Positions 4,468-63,577 of a stretch of 64,000 bases of DNA are shown one piece after another; position 1 is the stretch's first letter; each line of letters begins with the position of its first letter. Below the pieces are notes generated by a model, which did no database searches, was not told the origin of the DNA, and saw nothing but the letters and a program-made list of their open reading frames with translations. The position numbers and the translations under genes are program-made. The DNA comes from Candidatus Magasanikiibacteriota bacterium (GTDB taxonomy: Bacteria; Patescibacteriota; Patescibacteriia; Magasanikbacterales; UBA922). The DNA is taken from assembly GCA_041675185.1 (NCBI GenBank), contig JBAYUH010000002.1, forward strand, positions 1,052 through 65,051, given 5' to 3'.

Positions 4468-5298
4468 ATGCAAAAACAATTTTTAGTAGGTAGATACTAT
4501 TTCGACACGCTTTTTCGGGATGAAGCTAATAAGTCATTTATTTCTGATTTAACAAAGAAGCCTACTTTTGAAGAAGGTAATATTGGATATGCTTTAGCAA
4601 ATACATCTTTCGAGAAGGTGGGTGAAAGTAAGGAAAGCTTTTTGAGAGGAACATTCGCTAAATTTAAAATTAAGGATTATTACAAAAAATATCTCAAAAA
4701 AGAAAATGGCTTTCAAGAATCCATAACGGATAACAAAGTTGAATCTCAAATTGAATTTTTTCTCCACCATCCGTCCCATCTTATTTTTATTGAAAAATCT
4801 TCACAAATAAGAGAAAATATTTTTAAAAATAAATTCATTAAAATTTACGAAAAAAATACCTCAGTCACCAAGCCAAATATGGGTCTTGATTTTTTATTTG
4901 ATGAAAAAGATGTATATGAAGAAATAAAAAGTTGGGATAGAATAGTTAAAGCTAAATTTAATGATTTACGACCATCTAACCCGCGAATGGATCCACACTT
5001 TGAAAAAATTGAGGAATTATTAAAGGAAACAAAAAGTGATCGTTCTAAATTAGAATTTAAAATTGATGATCCAGATAGCACTAATTCCCTCGATTCAGAA
5101 AGTGTACTTATTAAACAAGCTCTCGCTTTGTCATCATATGGATATGGGAATGCAAATTTTGATGGGTTTAAAGGTAAAAATACAACTAATATCAAAACAA
5201 AAAAGTTTGTTAAATCAGTAAAACTTGATTTTGATTCAGAAACTCCCTTTAGTGTTGTAATAGATTTTATTGAAAAAGACGAAAAAGGAGAAATGTGA
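4468..5298 (+). CDS. Hypothetical 276-aa protein
   Basis: Long ORF in AT-rich context, same strand and operon-like spacing. No recognisable motif. Confidence 0.5.
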   Translation: MQKQFLVGRYYFDTLFRDEANKSFISDLTKKPTFEEGNIGYALANTSFEKVGESKESFLRGTFAKFKIKDYYKKYLKKENGFQESITDNKVESQIEFFLHHPSHLIFIEKSSQIRENIFKNKFIKIYEKNTSVTKPNMGLDFLFDEKDVYEEIKSWDRIVKAKFNDLRPSNPRMDPHFEKIEELLKETKSDRSKLEFKIDDPDSTNSLDSESVLIKQALALSSYGYGNANFDGFKGKNTTNIKTKKFVKSVKLDFDSETPFSVVIDFIEKDEKGEM

Positions 5299-5311
5299 TA
5301 TAATACTAGAT

Positions 5312-5842
5312 ATGAGTACTAATCTTGAAAAAAAATTTGGGTTTTTCTCAAAGATGTTCCAATTTGGTATTGGTAATATTTTTATTTCCCTTGATTTTTT
5401 TGTTGCTTTTTTAGTACTAATACTTTTATTTATTGATAATCACTTTAATTTAAAAATTTTTATTTCGATTGCAGAGGAAAGAAATGCCTATGTTCAGGTT
5501 ATTTTAAGTGCTTCTTCGATTCTTTTTGCACTCATTACCACTGCATTATCTATTATTTTATCTTTCTCAACTAGTAACTTTATCAAATTTTTAAAGAAAA
5601 AAGACATGCTAGATAGCGTACTTTTCCCTTTTTGGTTAGGAAATGCAATTTATCTTTTTACTATAATACTTTCCATTGTATATCTTCTACTAGAGCCGGC
5701 GACATGGATAAAAATAATACCATTTTTATTCATGTTTATAATTTTTTTGTTTATATATGCTATTGGTATTACTTTTTCCTTATTACGAACCATAATTCGT
5801 ATTGGTGAATGGATAGCTCAAAATGATGAAGATTTGGCGTAA
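5312..5842 (+). CDS. Hypothetical polytopic membrane protein (~176 aa)
   Basis: ATG at 5312 (the track start at 5270 is TTG and overlaps the previous gene). At least four hydrophobic helices. Confidence 0.45.
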   Translation: MSTNLEKKFGFFSKMFQFGIGNIFISLDFFVAFLVLILLFIDNHFNLKIFISIAEERNAYVQVILSASSILFALITTALSIILSFSTSNFIKFLKKKDMLDSVLFPFWLGNAIYLFTIILSIVYLLLEPATWIKIIPFLFMFIIFLFIYAIGITFSLLRTIIRIGEWIAQNDEDLA

Positions 5843-7353: not shown

Positions 7354-7818
7354 ATGAACTACAAACACACTCAAATTGGTTACCTGATGCTGGTTGTTAC
7401 GCTGGCCGTGCTGGTGATTTTCGTAAGATCTCATATCATGTCCGCCTCCGAGGTCCCTTCGGTTGATTCAGGCACAAATTTTGCAGTTACTTCCATAATG
7501 ACATTAATTCTATTTATTCTTACTTCCTTTGGGTCGCTTCAAGTAATTATTGACGAAAAATATTTACGAATCAAATTTGGCTATGGTATTTATCATAAAA
7601 AGTTTTCACTTGATGATATAATGTCTGCCAAAACCGTAAAGAATCATTGGTATTATGGATGGGGAATAAGAAGATGGTTGTGGCCAAAGATGTGGATTTA
7701 CAATGTTTCTGGTTTTGATGCGGTAGAAATAAAACTGAAAAATGGTAAAACGTACAGGATAGGCACCGATGAACCAAAAAAATTAGAACAAACAATTATT
7801 CATTCAATTAAATTATGA
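7354..7818 (+). CDS. Hypothetical membrane protein (two TM helices plus a soluble C-terminal domain)
   Basis: ATG at 7354 (the track start at 7324 is TTG overlapping the fic stop). Hydrophobic segments. Confidence 0.4.
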   Translation: MNYKHTQIGYLMLVVTLAVLVIFVRSHIMSASEVPSVDSGTNFAVTSIMTLILFILTSFGSLQVIIDEKYLRIKFGYGIYHKKFSLDDIMSAKTVKNHWYYGWGIRRWLWPKMWIYNVSGFDAVEIKLKNGKTYRIGTDEPKKLEQTIIHSIKL

Positions 7819-10276: not shown

Positions 10277-11092
10277 TTAATGTTTAAACACTTTGACAAA
10301 CATCTTCCCCAAATATCCTACTACAAACAAACTAGTACCTGTCAAAATAATCATCGCACCAGATGGTAAATCAAGATAATAAGAAGCTATAAGACCAACA
10401 ATGACAATACTAATAGAAAACAAAATAGTCAAAAAAGTAAATATTTTGAAATTTCTAGCAAACATCTTGGCAATCGCACTTGGTGTGACAAGCAAAGCAC
10501 TGACCATAATAATACCTACGAGCTTGATACTAAGTACAATAGCAATAGCTGTAGATATATAAAGCAACAAATCATAAATCCAAGGATTAAGACCAGAGAG
10601 GTAGGCTCCACTTGGATCAAAAGTTACAAACAACATCTTGCGATAAAAAAAACTCAAAATGAAAAGAATGAAAATTCCTATAATCAATATAGACCACAAA
10701 TCCAAAGTATTGACTGTCAAAATATTTCCAAACAAATAACTAATAAGCTCTGGTTGATAACCTTGATAAAAATGAAGCAAGATAATACCAATAGCAATCC
10801 CTGTCGTAAACATAATAGCAATAGCCATGTCACTAGAAATATTTGTTTTCTTCTCAAGAAAATAAATTATAATAGCAATGACAACTGCCAAAACTACAGC
10901 TGTAGGAATTGGCGCCCAACCCAAAAGAACAGCAAGAGCAATTCCAGCCAAAGAAGCATGAGCGACACCATCACCAATGAAACTCATTTTTCTTGTTACT
11001 ACAAAAGTACCCAACCAGCCCAAAAGTACTGAAACAAAAGTACCAGCGAGTAAGGCTCTGATCATAAATGGATATTGTAAAAATTCTAGCAT
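10277..11092 (-). CDS. Metal (Zn/Mn) ABC transporter permease, ABC-3 family (ZnuB/MntB-like)
   Basis: A polytopic 271-aa protein with ABC-3 permease character, sitting in an operon with the ATPase, the substrate-binding protein and the Fur-family regulator. Confidence 0.7.
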   Translation of the reverse strand: MLEFLQYPFMIRALLAGTFVSVLLGWLGTFVVTRKMSFIGDGVAHASLAGIALAVLLGWAPIPTAVVLAVVIAIIIYFLEKKTNISSDMAIAIMFTTGIAIGIILLHFYQGYQPELISYLFGNILTVNTLDLWSILIIGIFILFILSFFYRKMLFVTFDPSGAYLSGLNPWIYDLLLYISTAIAIVLSIKLVGIIMVSALLVTPSAIAKMFARNFKIFTFLTILFSISIVIVGLIASYYLDLPSGAMIILTGTSLFVVGYLGKMFVKVFKH

Positions 11093-11103
11093 AGTTTGTT
11101 CAC

Positions 11104-11269
11104 AATCCCGAATCGAGAATACGACGAGGGATCTTTCTTAAAATAAAATTTACTTAATTAACAAAACTTATAAAATTCTTGAAAGACGTTTCCAACGTAC
11201 ACACAATCTTTCTCAAAAAAATATTCTTTTTAAGAAAGATCCCTCCCTGTCTTTCAGCAGTTCGGGATT
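11104..11269. repeat. Large imperfect inverted repeat (outer 9-bp arm aatcccgaa/ttcgggatt, inner 18-bp perfect arm gagggatctttcttaaaa/ttttaagaaagatccctc) flanking an ~84-bp AT-rich loop, between the ABC ATPase and permease genes
   Basis: Seen directly. It lies between the stop of 11276..11995 and the start of 10277..11092. Confidence 0.8.
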
Positions 11270-11275
11270 ACGAAA

Positions 11276-11995
11276 TTAATGAATATGTTCATGTGTATGA
11301 AACAAACCAGTTTGACTTCCATACAACTTTTGTAAAACTTCTGGTGTAATTACTACTTCTGGTGCACCAAAACACACCATTTCTTTGTTTAGACAAATTA
11401 CTGACTTGGTATATTTGTTGACAATATTTAATTCGTGCGAAACTATGACACAAGTCGTACCTCTAGTTTCATTTATTTTTTTTATCAAATCATAAATAGT
11501 TTTTTCACCAACAATATCTATACCTGTAGAAGGCTCATCAAAAATTAGAATTTCTTTTTCATGTAACAAAGCACGTGCAATCATTACGCGTTGAAATTGT
11601 CCACCAGACAAATAACCCAATTGTTTTTGTTCAATATCTTCTAATCCCACTTCTAGCAAAACTTCTATAATATTTTTTTCATCATGACCTTTTTTGCCAC
11701 ACTTTTCTAGACTCATAAATTCATGCACACTAATAGGAATAGTCCTATCAAATTCAAACTTCTGTGGTACATAACCAATTTTTTGTCTGACATCTTTTGG
11801 TTTTTTGCCATCTATAGTAATACTACCTTTTGTTGGACTAAGCACTCCAATAATATTTTGGAGTAAAGTAGTTTTACCACTGCCATTTGGTCCAATGATA
11901 GCTACAATATCACCTTTGGCAATTTCAAAAGAAACATTTTGCAGAGCTACAAAATCATTGAATTTATAAGTCAGATTTTCGACTTTGATTAGCAT
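11276..11995 (-). CDS. Metal ABC transporter ATP-binding protein (ZnuC/MntA-like)
   Basis: Walker A GPNGSGKTT, ABC signature LSGGQFQRV, and Walker B ILIFDEPSTGID. Confidence 0.8.
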   Translation of the reverse strand: MLIKVENLTYKFNDFVALQNVSFEIAKGDIVAIIGPNGSGKTTLLQNIIGVLSPTKGSITIDGKKPKDVRQKIGYVPQKFEFDRTIPISVHEFMSLEKCGKKGHDEKNIIEVLLEVGLEDIEQKQLGYLSGGQFQRVMIARALLHEKEILIFDEPSTGIDIVGEKTIYDLIKKINETRGTTCVIVSHELNIVNKYTKSVICLNKEMVCFGAPEVVITPEVLQKLYGSQTGLFHTHEHIH

Positions 11996-12057
11996 AATTT
12001 AGTTAAAAGTTTGTAAAATTATAAAGTTACTTATTCTGCCTATTCTGCTTAATTTGC

Positions 12058-13002
12058 TTATTCTGCTTTCAACAATTCATAAATATTGTTTACATTGAAA
12101 TCCATCATCTCAATATAGCTCATTCTACCATCTACTCCTCCCAAAGGATCCAAAGTTTTTATCTGTACACCCAAATCACTAGCCAAAGTTTTGATAGAAT
12201 CTTGTGATAATTGTGGTTCAACAAATAATGTTTTAATATTATCATCTTTTACAGTTTTTTGTAATTCTTTCAAATACTGGGCCGTTGGTTCTTGTCCAGG
12301 AAATGGTTCAAAAGTACCAACAATTTTCAAATCAAAATGGTCAGCAAAATATCCCCAAGCGTCATGAAATACTACAATGTTTTTATTAGTCAAACTACTC
12401 AATTTGTTTTTCCATTCCACATCTTTGGTTTGCAATTTTTCGATGAAATCTTGCGTATTAATATTATAGTAACCTTTGTTTTGTGGATTAAACTCGGATA
12501 ATTTGTTGCTAACAGCTTGTGCTATCAAAATGGCGTTGTCGAGATTAAGCCAATAGTGTGGGTCATAAGATGTAGTGTCAACTTGGTCTGGATCAGGAAT
12601 ATGATTAGGATCACTTTCATCCAGTCTTTGCAATGTAACATTTTGACTCAAATCATAAGTCTCTGCACCTGGAACTGAATCAGTAATGTCTTTTACCCAA
12701 TTATCAAGCGATTGCCCATTCACAAAAAATATTTTTGTACCTTGCAAACTTTTTATTTGAGAAGTCGAAACTTCAAAAGTGTGTGGACTGGCTCCTGGTG
12801 GCAAAATTACATTGACATCTACTTTGTCACCGCCAATTTCTTTTACCAAATCGTAAAGTGGAAAAATACTAGCAACTATTTTTAATTTTTGACTGTCTAC
12901 TTTATTTTGTGCAGATTCATTGGTCTGTATAACACTACAGCCAGACAAAAAGAAAGTTAGAGACAAAAATAAAATTATTATCAAAACTATTTTTTTATAC
13001 AT
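12058..13002 (-). CDS. Metal-binding periplasmic substrate-binding lipoprotein, TroA/ZnuA-like (cluster 9 SBP)
   Basis: Signal peptide with LSGC lipobox. Metal-ligand motifs SPHTFE and DPHYWL. Confidence 0.75.
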   Translation of the reverse strand: MYKKIVLIIILFLSLTFFLSGCSVIQTNESAQNKVDSQKLKIVASIFPLYDLVKEIGGDKVDVNVILPPGASPHTFEVSTSQIKSLQGTKIFFVNGQSLDNWVKDITDSVPGAETYDLSQNVTLQRLDESDPNHIPDPDQVDTTSYDPHYWLNLDNAILIAQAVSNKLSEFNPQNKGYYNINTQDFIEKLQTKDVEWKNKLSSLTNKNIVVFHDAWGYFADHFDLKIVGTFEPFPGQEPTAQYLKELQKTVKDDNIKTLFVEPQLSQDSIKTLASDLGVQIKTLDPLGGVDGRMSYIEMMDFNVNNIYELLKAE

Positions 13003-13006
13003 AAAT

Positions 13007-13384
13007 TTATTTACTACATTTCTTACAAAGTCCAGTTAATGTCAATTGATGATGGACATTAGTGAAATTTTTAAATTCATCAAACGAATAATTACAAGCG
13101 ACCTCTTCACTATAACCACACTTTTTACAAATCACATGGTGATGTGGTTCTTTGACCAAACAATACAATTTTTCATTATTCATATTTTCGATATTTACCA
13201 ATCCCAATTCTTCCAATAAATTCAAAACACGGTAAACAGAAACTTTGTCTACAGTTTTTATTTTTTGATGAATATCTTGAGCAGAAATAGCCTGATGGTT
13301 AGATGACAAAACTCCCAAAACTTTTTCTCGCGGTTTGGTCAATTTGTAACCATGTTGCTTAAGTTGTAGTAATATTTCTTTCAT
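13007..13384 (-). CDS. Fur-family metal-responsive transcriptional regulator (Zur/Fur-like)
   Basis: The 125-aa size fits, with a C-terminal HHHVICKKCG...C..C metal site, and it sits directly upstream of the metal ABC operon. Confidence 0.75.
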   Translation of the reverse strand: MKEILLQLKQHGYKLTKPREKVLGVLSSNHQAISAQDIHQKIKTVDKVSVYRVLNLLEELGLVNIENMNNEKLYCLVKEPHHHVICKKCGYSEEVACNYSFDEFKNFTNVHHQLTLTGLCKKCSK

Positions 13385-13482
13385 AAGAAACCTACTATAC
13401 CACTATTGCAAACCATTTGCAATAGCATATTATCCACAAGTATGTTATAATAAAAAATACTTTTAATTTTTATGCAAAAACT

Positions 13483-14745
13483 ATGAAAACAAAATCAATT
13501 TTTCTTTCTATACTATTTATCATTGCGTCACTTATGTTGCCACTAAAAAGTCTGGCAATCACGAGTGACTACGACTTAGTCACACCACCTCCTCCTGACT
13601 ATGGTCCCGATTCTTATGATCTCACTCTTGGTCAAGAAAATAATACTTCTACCAAAACAGAATTAAGCCCTGATGAAATTCCTCAAGCTGAATATAGTAC
13701 AGCCATAATACTTAGTATTGATACCAAAGGTAGTCACAAAATAGCTGGCAATTATACTGAAGATTATCAGACTTACACTGTCAAAATTTTGTCTGGCAAA
13801 GAAAAAAACAAAGAAGTGACTATAAAAAATTCTGGTGTACAAACAATCGACAAACTTGAAAATAGAAAAGTTGGTGAAAAAATAGTTGTTGTCAAAACTT
13901 ACTCTGTAGACGGTACTGTTACTTATGATTATGCTGACAATTATCGTATCCCAGCATTACTACTAATTCTAGGTATTTTTATTTTTTTCGTTTTATTACT
14001 TGGACGTCTAAAAGGATTTGGCTCTTTATTGGGTCTAATTTTTAGTATTTTAGTTTTGGGATTTTTTATTGTACCTCAGATTGCTCATGGTAAAAATCCT
14101 TTGACTGTTACAATTATCGGATCATTATTTATTGTTTGTATTTCTCTATACCTAGCTCACGGTTTCAACAAAAGAACAAATCTATCACTACTCAGTACTA
14201 TAATTACTTTAGTAATATCTATTATAATGGCCCAGATTTTTGTGCGCATGGCTAGTCTATTTGGTATGGGTTCAGAAGAAGCCTTCTTCTTACAAACTAC
14301 TCAATTTGGTGATATCAATTTACAAGGCTTATTGCTTGCTGGAATTATCATTGGTACACTAGGCGTCCTTGATGATATTACCACTGCTCAGACTGCTGTA
14401 GTTGGTGAACTTCGTTTTGCCAATCCAAATCTAAATAAAAATGAATTAAACAAGAGAGCTTTGGTAGTTGGCAAAGAACATATTTCTTCCCTCGTAAATA
14501 CTCTGGTCTTGGCTTACGCTGGTGCTTCCTTACCGCTGTTCCTCTTATTTTCTGCTTCACAAAATTCACCTATTTGGTACACAATCAATAGTCAATTTAT
14601 CTCTGAAGAATTAGTACGTACACTAGTTGGCAGTCTATCTCTTATTTTAGCTGTGCCCATCTCTACTTATATTGCTGCCCATTTTTTGAGCAAACAAGAC
14701 GTTACAAAAATGCATGAAGCAAATTATCATGGACACCACCATTAA
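13483..14745 (+). CDS. YibE/F-family integral membrane protein with N-terminal extracytoplasmic domain and His-rich C-terminus
   Basis: Signal/anchor, a ~150-aa soluble region, then multiple TM helices. Ends ...HEANYHGHHH. Confidence 0.5.
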   Translation: MKTKSIFLSILFIIASLMLPLKSLAITSDYDLVTPPPPDYGPDSYDLTLGQENNTSTKTELSPDEIPQAEYSTAIILSIDTKGSHKIAGNYTEDYQTYTVKILSGKEKNKEVTIKNSGVQTIDKLENRKVGEKIVVVKTYSVDGTVTYDYADNYRIPALLLILGIFIFFVLLLGRLKGFGSLLGLIFSILVLGFFIVPQIAHGKNPLTVTIIGSLFIVCISLYLAHGFNKRTNLSLLSTIITLVISIIMAQIFVRMASLFGMGSEEAFFLQTTQFGDINLQGLLLAGIIIGTLGVLDDITTAQTAVVGELRFANPNLNKNELNKRALVVGKEHISSLVNTLVLAYAGASLPLFLLFSASQNSPIWYTINSQFISEELVRTLVGSLSLILAVPISTYIAAHFLSKQDVTKMHEANYHGHHH

Positions 14746-63529: not shown

Positions 63530-63543
63530 TAGTCAAAAAAAAT

Positions 63544-63577
63544 ACCCCGCCTCTTGCGAGAGGCGGGGTATTTTTTT
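63544..63577. terminator. Strong bidirectional rho-independent terminator
   Basis: Perfect hairpin accccgcctct-tgcg-agaggcggggt flanked by A8 and T7. Confidence 0.8.

Follow-up and report, generated by a model that had tools for sequence, protein, structure and literature searches.

The subject of this study is a palindromic element lodged inside a metal-uptake operon on a 64,000-nucleotide stretch of bacterial DNA, hereafter called the window, whose sequence is the same as that of L001 (ENA ERZ27247358). Homologs of its ZnuB protein point to a host among the Candidatus Magasanikbacteria (Patescibacteria/candidate phyla radiation [CPR]), and the G+C content is ca. 32%. The operon is read from the minus strand in the order zur-znuA-znuC-gap-znuB. 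Its first gene, zur (13007 to 13384), encodes a Fur-family regulator of 125 amino acids (aa) (Pfam match to the FUR family, 4e-18), and znuA (12058 to 13002) encodes a solute-binding protein of 314 aa (ZnuA, 2.6e-74). The open reading frames (ORFs) on either side of the gap, both on the minus strand, are znuC (11276 to 11995), which encodes an ATP-binding cassette (ABC) ATPase of 239 aa (ABC_tran, 9.5e-35) and ends with a TAA stop at 11276 to 11278, and znuB (10277 to 11092), which encodes an intact ABC-3 permease of 271 aa (3.1e-74) and begins with the ATG at 11090 to 11092. As originally predicted, the ATPase and permease genes are separated by 183 nt (11093 to 11275). On the plus strand, the only small ORFs in this gap are spurious ones that overlap the genes, and the sense strand is without an ATG-initiated ORF. 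A promoter scan returned 15 promoter-like sites, compared with 11.8 ± 2.9 in shuffled sequences, and the idea of an internal promoter was dropped because such sites are no more frequent than in the shuffles.

The element occupies 178 nt of the gap (11098 to 11275, minus strand) and, according to both RNA and DNA folds, consists of two inverted units that resemble repetitive extragenic palindromic (REP) sequences, with a spacer between them. It had been described beforehand as a 166-bp palindrome; the palindrome is real, but the structured region is longer than that. The inner arms (11126 to 11143 and 11228 to 11245) are 18 nt long, 100% complementary, and 84 nt apart. The outer pair, AATCCCGAA/TTCGGGATT (11104 to 11112 and 11261 to 11269), is perfect over 9 nt and lengthens to 14 nt at 86% complementarity (11099 to 11112 and 11261 to 11274), so that the 18- and 9-bp perfect arms and the AT-rich loop of ca. 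84 nt in the first description were all recovered. The loop corresponds to an AT-rich spacer of 84 nt (11144 to 11227), which holds a second GAAAGATT block able to pair with the 5′ arm (inverted repeat I4). The strand first quoted is correct as a sequence; since the operon lies on the minus strand, the transcript bears its reverse complement.

The palindrome is far beyond chance. On the sense (minus) strand, RNA folding gave −59.8 kcal/mol, compared with −37.8 ± 3.6 kcal/mol in shuffled controls, none of which (of 200) did as well (z = −6.1). The minimum-free-energy fold is a nearly fully paired 178-nt hairpin. The plus strand, folded as RNA, gave −45.1 kcal/mol (z = −5.0). Folding with DNA parameters yielded a four-way junction (−30.6 kcal/mol; z = −5.7) whose branches are the outer stem, the inner 18-bp stem, and one small hairpin per arm. 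In the sense RNA, the predicted stem opens 2 nt past the znuC stop and closes 6 nt ahead of the znuB ATG, and the long hairpin is followed by GUGAACAAACUAUG.

The repeat unit and its covarying helices

Each arm of the palindrome amounts to one REP-like unit, laid out as a head, ATCCC, G-A, a variable helix (helix 2), a GAA-type triloop plus a bulged base, G-A, GGGAT, and a CTTTC(Y)T tail. In the sense direction, the 5′ arm (11228 to 11274, minus strand) reads TTCGTA-ATCCC-GAA-CTGCT[GAA]AG(A)CAG-GGA-GGGAT-CTTTCTTAAAA; the 3′ arm (11099 to 11143, plus strand), given in its plus-strand reading, is TTCACA-ATCCC-GAA-TCG-A[GAA]T(A)-CGA-CGA-GGGAT-CTTTCTTAAAA. R1, a covariance model built on an alignment of 14 arms, scored them at 56.2 bits (E = 5.5e-15) and 53.6 bits (E = 3.5e-14), respectively. 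The consensus of those 14 arms is nnCGTC-ATCCC-GA-[helix 2]-GA-GGGAT-CTTTCTT, the unit consensus being nnCGTCATCCCGA...GAGGGATCTTTCTT. Positions T9, C10, G13, and A14 and the block GATCTTTC are invariant, and the CTTTC tail, beyond which the sequence is T rich, is unchanged in 14 of 14 arms.

Both helix 1 (ATCCC/GGGAT) and helix 2 covary. In the alignment of 14 arms, pairing holds in 96.3% of cells, and changes on both sides are seen at six of the nine pairs; none of 500 shuffles was as good, and slid controls reached at most 48%. When the comparison was widened to 25 distinct arms, some of them outside the training set, 96.7% of cells were paired, eight of the nine pairs were compensated, and helix 1 was 100% paired. 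R1 also recovers arms outside its training set, namely, L029:935, L018:929 and 1054, L021:6866, L026:1943, L023:371, and L033:450 and 317.

Read directly, helix 2 ends in a GAA-type triloop with one bulged base on the 3′ side. It takes the form CT[GAA]AG(A) in the 5′ arm of the window and A[GAA]T(A) in the 3′ arm, and among relatives, GC[GAA]GC(A) in L004 and CC[GAA]GG(A) in L019. GCGAAGC is a classic, very stable DNA mini-hairpin, and the nearest-neighbor model misses stability of this kind. With DNA parameters, the nearest-neighbor energies of single-arm hairpins (z = −0.3 to −0.6) are no better than those of shuffles, and the case for the in-arm hairpin therefore stands on covariation rather than on energy; as RNA, an in-arm hairpin of −9.6 kcal/mol is predicted for the 5′ arm. 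In one L019 copy (7607 to 7772), the arms ATCCT/AGGAT and ATCTC/GAGAT are paired within each arm and mismatched across arms, which indicates that selection, as with REPs, acts on each unit's hairpin and not on the long palindrome alone. The aligned arms show that the units have kept their own hairpins through compensatory change.

Empty and occupied junctions, and copies at other loci

Relatives of the operon were reached through a search for ZnuB homologs; the exact ZnuB and ZnuC proteins of the window are not on record, and the database ZnuB starts at a later codon. In L008, L010, and L011, whose ZnuB proteins are 75 to 77% identical to that of the window, the junction is empty and reads TAA-t-ATG, and in L003 (ca. 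86 to 87%), it is likewise empty, with a 6-nt gap (TAA-ttttat-ATG). It is occupied in L004, L005, and L027 (80%) and in L033 (77%), and it is partly occupied in L032 (87%). The znuC stop codon in L004 and L033, like the grpE stop in L019, falls within the head of the element. The original prediction had tied a random local duplication to orthologous operons that lack the element and to an absence of other copies; four orthologs do lack it, the others just named carry it in whole or in part, and copies were found elsewhere. To judge from these junctions, the element is not ancestral to the operon, and comparison of the two states shows it as an insertion at a formerly abutting znuC stop and znuB start in one Magasanikbacteria sublineage.

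The operon itself is a mosaic. Zur and ZnuC of the window are nearer to those of L004 (84% and 91% aa identity) than to those of L003 (74% and 80%), and ZnuA and ZnuB are nearer to those of L003 (70% and 86%) than to those of L004 (62% and 80%). This pattern suggests recombination with breakpoints near the intergenic junctions, and in light of these gene identities, a single gain followed by recombination or loss explains the distribution of the element as well as repeated gain does.

Several other features came to light in the same operons. In L032, positions 1 to 180 hold no znuC ahead of the partial element; the sequence there is unrelated, G+C richer, and without an Rfam match. L034 (104 to 201; also L035 and L036; ZnuB 78% identical) has a 98-nt znuC-znuB gap with an unrelated palindrome, TGTTATAAATG...CATTTATAACA, whose half-sites we take to resemble the halves of an enterobacterial Zur box; palindromes of different kinds seem to be drawn to the znuC-znuB junction. 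In both L033 (437 to 456) and L032 (ca. 256 to 274), the inner right arm (AAGAAA[...]AGGATCC) encloses a small G+C-rich hairpin, and the two show compensatory differences (CCTGCC..GGCAGG versus CCCGCC..GGCGGG). The znuA-znuC gap of L004 (8116 to 8285) measures 170 nt, compared with 62 nt in the window, and carries a hairpin, ttgttccactg / cagtggaacaa (fold, −37.8 kcal/mol; z = −3.05), so that the operon of this relative holds two palindromic insertions, unrelated to each other.

Within the window, both an arm search that allowed up to 3 mismatches and R1 run with its filters off returned only the two arms (the next R1 hit scored 13.8 bits; E = 0.11), in agreement with the earlier statement that the motif does not recur there. 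Farther afield, 185,579 species genomes were scanned with a two-arm pattern, which produced 11 stretches. Five of these form palindromes, and they come from Dialister (three), Bdellovibrio (one), and Ca. Magasanikbacteria CG1_02_32_51 (one, L019). The remaining six (L012 to L014, L016, L020, and L022) were discarded as chance matches in unrelated GC-rich coding sequence. A scan of metagenome contigs gave five stretches and added L023 (48% G+C, several arms) and more Dialister-type copies, while a single-arm scan of viral contigs found solitary arms in the GC-rich L028 and L029. By blastn, the element had no match among plasmids and one chance 33-nt match among phages (a Pelagibacter phage), and a search of full-text papers for the arm sequences met only primer coincidences. 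At the gathering threshold, Rfam reported only tRNAs in the window; at E <= 10, it returned only subthreshold noise in 10900 to 11500, and on 11 related loci, it found nothing but one 5S rRNA.

In CG1_02_32_51, where three loci lie on two contigs (ca. 14 kb of sequence read), one copy (L019, ca. 1988 to 2165) lies between grpE and hsp20, upstream of dnaK, with the grpE TAA stop inside the element head and the hsp20 ATG 2 nt past the element end. Another (L019, ca. 7606 to 7777) is situated upstream of rnhA on the minus strand, with an unidentified ORF at its other end. L007, which like L019 belongs to the CG1_02_32_51 assembly (MNVC01), carries the znuB-proximal half of a znuC-znuB copy, so this genome has at least three loci. 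The spacers tell a related story. Those of the window and L004 are homologous (local score, 67 versus a null maximum of 30; 61 of 84 nt, or 73%, identical), and the window spacer is unrelated to all others compared. The L032 spacer matches that of the L019 rnhA copy over 19 of 19 nt (TTCAGAATCAATTAACGTT), although that copy occupies another locus and is turned the other way relative to transcription, and the helix-2 type TCGAGAATACGA is common to the right arms of the window, L033, and the L019 rnhA copy (arm 7733 to 7777). Such sharing of spacers and arms across loci argues that whole dimers or parts of them move or recombine and that their orientation to the transcript is not fixed. At the level of sequence comparison, then, the family is shown to have reached further intercistronic junctions within a relative's genome, and spacers and arms to have been exchanged between loci.

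Two further observations concern relatives of the element. At the znuC-znuB copy of CG1_02_32_51, the end of an insertion sequence (IS) interrupts the spacer (L007, 1 to 240; L006, 1 to 135) and, on L007, stands in place of the other half of the element, and both contigs end inside the IS; the first domain of the IS product is an HTH_38 (7.4e-15), typical of IS30-family transposases, and the close relative L004 has an intact element. L024, a metagenome contig of 56% G+C, contains a tandem array (12500 to 12813; period, ca. 71 nt) whose unit holds the short hairpin GGGATCTTTCTTTCGTAAAAGAAAGATCC, the same inner-arm motif with almost no spacer.

Nature of the element and competing explanations

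The empty orthologous sites (L003, L008, L010, and L011), the copies at other loci in L019, and the covarying unit hairpins all bear out the earlier suggestion of an insertion resembling a REP or a transposable element of the miniature inverted-repeat kind (MITE). We consider it likely that the feature is a noncoding, nonautonomous palindromic repeat of the REP-dimer (REPIN/MITE-like) kind. Di Nocera, De Gregorio, and Rocco (2013; PMC3733652) describe the CGTC-tagged REPs as carrying the tag CGTC, TGTC, or CCTC, a stem of 8 to 9 bp that starts with A-T, a loop of 4 to 5 nt, and a tail close to CCA. According to the same survey, these units occur mostly as dimers with 20- to 100-bp spacers between codirectional or convergent genes, are without a dedicated transposase, and are distributed over five phyla, with Neisseria dRS3 and Rickettsia RPE-4 and RPE-6 included. 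The present family has much in common with the class. Its stem begins with A-T (columns 8-41 are A-U in 11 and G-U in 3 of 14 arms; columns 9-40 are U-A in 14 of 14, and in 25 of 25 in the larger alignment), and in GC-richer hosts, relatives share the head tag, which is CGTC in Dialister and L023 and TGTC in L018, L026, L028, and L029. The element is likewise an inverted dimer, its 84-nt spacer falls within the described range, and spacer sequences vary among copies; its units can fold apart or as one large stem-loop (−59.8 kcal/mol here), and it sits between codirectional genes with no unit-flanked transposase gene.

Other traits set the family apart from the CGTC class. The tail is an invariant CTTTC(Y)T instead of roughly CCA (3 nt), and the stem consists of a 5-bp helix, a tandem G-A, a second helix of 2 to 6 bp, a 3-nt loop (mostly GAA), and a bulge. 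The host phylum, Patescibacteria, is absent from the survey's five, and the family looks sparse rather than abundant. In addition, the heads of the window arms are CGTA and CACA, unlike the CGTC tag, and GTC is kept in only 1 of 10 Magasanikbacteria arms; by its sequence, the head of the window copy is a decayed tag. Given the shared traits together with the differing tail and stem, we have filed the element as REP-dimer-like, near the CGTC class but outside its four families.

Resemblances to other repeat classes are more partial. REPINs are REP doublets mobilized by RAYT (REP-associated tyrosine transposase) Y1 transposases (Bertels and Rainey, 2011; PMC3116915). Like REPINs, the element joins two inverted REP units and a spacer into a hairpin, is nonautonomous and intergenic, and varies in presence among relatives; unlike them, it has no arm with a GTAG head, no unit-flanked RAYT was found in the window or the loci examined, and its copy number is apparently low. 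It resembles a MITE in its terminal inverted repeats, with arms of ca. 45 nt. The ERIC/IRU and Correia (CREE/NEMIS) elements treated by De Gregorio and Di Nocera are reportedly imperfect palindromes of ca. 100 to 150 bp that are cotranscribed in operons. By that account, they and the present element are alike in size class, in their transcribed intercistronic site, and in a long RNA hairpin that RNase III or RNase E might cleave or that might change the stability of the flanking mRNA; unlike them, our element has a REP-like unit in each arm, and there is no sequence similarity between the two.

With regard to mobility, the element would spread or recombine as DNA through its hairpin-forming units. 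By analogy with the REP/RAYT pairing, its mobilizer would be a trans-acting transposase encoded outside the element, most plausibly a single-strand HUH/Y1 enzyme of the RAYT-like kind, although another enzyme may serve; the element itself may be selfish or near-neutral. In L019, a Y1 transposase gene (IS200-like; PF01797, 5.6e-19) is located at 4990 to 5436 (region 4900 to 5540), with dnaK and dnaJ as its neighbors. Its frame contains a TAG at an expected Gln (FTW*SGFGAFSVS), and it is flanked by inverted GTAG-type GTAGTCCCAGAGGGAC hairpins (4964 to 4976; 5455 to 5467 and 5523 to 5535 on the other strand). Together, gene and hairpins form a REPtron-like unit in a CPR genome, ca. 3 kb from two copies of the element. 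We rejected this transposase as the mobilizer and retain it as a lead only, because its flanking hairpins are different (R1 is blind to GTAGTCCCAGAGGGAC), its frame is broken by the TAG, and tblastn found no Y1_Tnp homolog in the window. Nor did a parent IS with the same ends emerge in the loci examined; the IS30-like and IS110-like genes near L006 and L007 are not flanked by arms.

Several points weigh against a mobile REP dimer. No transposase with matching ends was found in the loci examined, and the only Y1 transposase gene met, that of L019, is stop interrupted and has its own hairpin type. No target-site duplication is recognizable against the empty site of L003 (TAA-ttttat-ATG), the flanks being too diverged for it to be judged. 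The 64-kb window contains one copy, multicopy status being seen only in a relative, and exact-arm scans of very large collections yielded few matches, so that the family is either sparse or fast diverging. Finally, retention at the same junction (ZnuB 77 to 80% identical), taken with the sense-strand excess of G·U in the window copy (12 G·U to 3 A·C), would fit selection on RNA too.

This last point leads to the RNA. Lying inside the operon, the element would have to be cotranscribed, and its transcript would, on modeling, fold as a very stable hairpin between the znuC stop and the znuB start. Such a fold could incidentally stall terminating ribosomes at znuC, offer an RNase III-type substrate in its long stem, or replace direct stop-start coupling, with both codons held at the stem base; a side effect of this sort on the mRNA is plausible. 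It is a larger step to regard the element as a domesticated cis-acting RNA module, whether an RNase III-type site, a partial attenuator, or a coupling device, that tunes ATPase/permease synthesis on the zur-znuACB transcript, and this, which the data do not call for, we think unlikely. The same junction has retained the element in the window, L004, L033, and partly L032 over ZnuB identities of 77 to 87%, but the four orthologous operons with abutting genes do without it, and the same family turns up in unrelated operons (grpE-hsp20 and rnhA), with one spacer type in both orientations to transcription. Identity between the spacers of the window and L004 reaches 73% (61 of 84 nt), compared with 54 to 70% at third codon positions of the flanking genes, although the baseline identity of an AT-rich spacer is high to begin with. 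In both the window (−59.8 versus −45.1 kcal/mol) and L004 (−55.1 versus −46.8 kcal/mol), the fold of the sense strand is more stable than that of the antisense strand. The ratio of G·U to A·C is 12:3 in the window copy but 6:3, 6:3, and 6:9 in others, and because the sense strand is skewed toward G over C and T over A, an excess of G·U is expected from skew alone and is not decisive; being inconsistent across copies and explained by the skew, it was set aside as proof of RNA-level selection. The stem also opens 2 nt past the stop codon, and E. coli REPs less than 16 nt from a stop codon have been reported to stall ribosomes, to down-regulate translation, and to reduce the output of the gene upstream (Liang et al., 2015, cited in PMC12306157). 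A scan of 10900 to 13600 revealed no U-tract terminator.

That scan bears equally on a weak intrinsic terminator or attenuator, in which a hairpin plus CUUUCUU in the 5′ arm would end some transcripts before znuB. The invariant tail (CTTTC in 14 of 14 arms, then T-rich sequence) and the in-arm RNA hairpin of −9.6 kcal/mol lend this some appeal, but we judge it very improbable: the consensus scan found 0 terminator-like sites in 10900 to 13600, and the same interval lacks the G+C-rich stem-loop directly followed by a U-run that marks an intrinsic terminator. Moreover, the in-arm stems are short, interrupted, and energetically no better than shuffles, folding within an arm has to compete with the long cross-arm hairpin, and znuB is needed for transporter function and is intact. 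We give almost no credence to a site for Zur or another regulator inside the operon, an option that the original prediction had also raised and that did not survive; the sole evidence for it is a palindrome within a metal-regulated operon. The region that separates zur from the divergent yibE/F-like gene contains instead a perfect 10+3+10 palindrome, CTATTGCAAA-cca-TTTGCAATAG (whole site, CTATTGCAAAccaTTTGCAATAG; 13403 to 13425), which shares positions with promoter-like hexamers on both strands and is kept upstream of zur in L003, L004, L008, L010, and L011. In sequence, this palindrome has no relation to the element; it probably serves the clade as its Zur operator, and a conserved operator-like box at the zur promoter leaves no need for one inside the operon. 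The element, for its part, turns up in heat-shock and rnhA contexts, and there are orthologous operons that lack it. As for chance, or a local inverted duplication without relatives, the single copy in the window is the one point in its favor; homologous arms at other loci and in other phyla, together with fold z values of −5 to −6, refute it, and its probability is negligible. The window has a separate palindrome as well, a 19-nt perfect hairpin, AAAAAAATACCCCGCCTCT/AGAGGCGGGGTATTTTTTT (63536 to 63577), whose loop is 4 nt long and which is bordered on either side by A/T runs. It has the look of an unremarkable intrinsic terminator that acts in both directions.

One more ambitious proposal builds on the unit itself. 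The CTTTC-tailed, tandem-G-A unit may represent an undescribed branch of the CGTC-type REP superfamily that extends across phyla (Patescibacteria, Dialister, and others) and has been co-opted at Magasanikbacteria stop/start junctions for coupling or processing; the dimer hairpin, by holding stop and start together, would permit survival in ultrasmall genomes only at such junctions. We consider this proposal quite unlikely. If it were true, the few copies and the one candidate Y1 transposase would offer a tractable system for finding the mobilizer of CGTC-type REPs.

On the REP-dimer-like reading that we favor, the element would be selfish DNA of a common type, found here in an unusual host. 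REPs, REPINs, and MITEs are well known in large proteobacterial genomes, and Patescibacteria genomes are ca. 1 Mb with almost no intergenic space; no paper in the literature library searched links REP or MITE elements with Patescibacteria. While the kind of element is known, its unit architecture, its cross-phylum reach, and its survival at the stop/start junctions of streamlined CPR genomes are new. For annotation, the consequence is that the gap is to be recorded as a repeat element and not as a regulatory site or a missed gene. The operons with the element (the window, L004, and L033) and those without it (L003, L008, L010, and L011) constitute natural pairs for the effect of a ca. 180-nt hairpin on a translationally coupled operon, and a unit that is conserved across phyla without a linked transposase bears on how CGTC-type REPs move. 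An element that sits at the stop/start junction of genes that abut in relatives, some copies of which supply the stop codon, shows how selfish repeats may persist in streamlined genomes.

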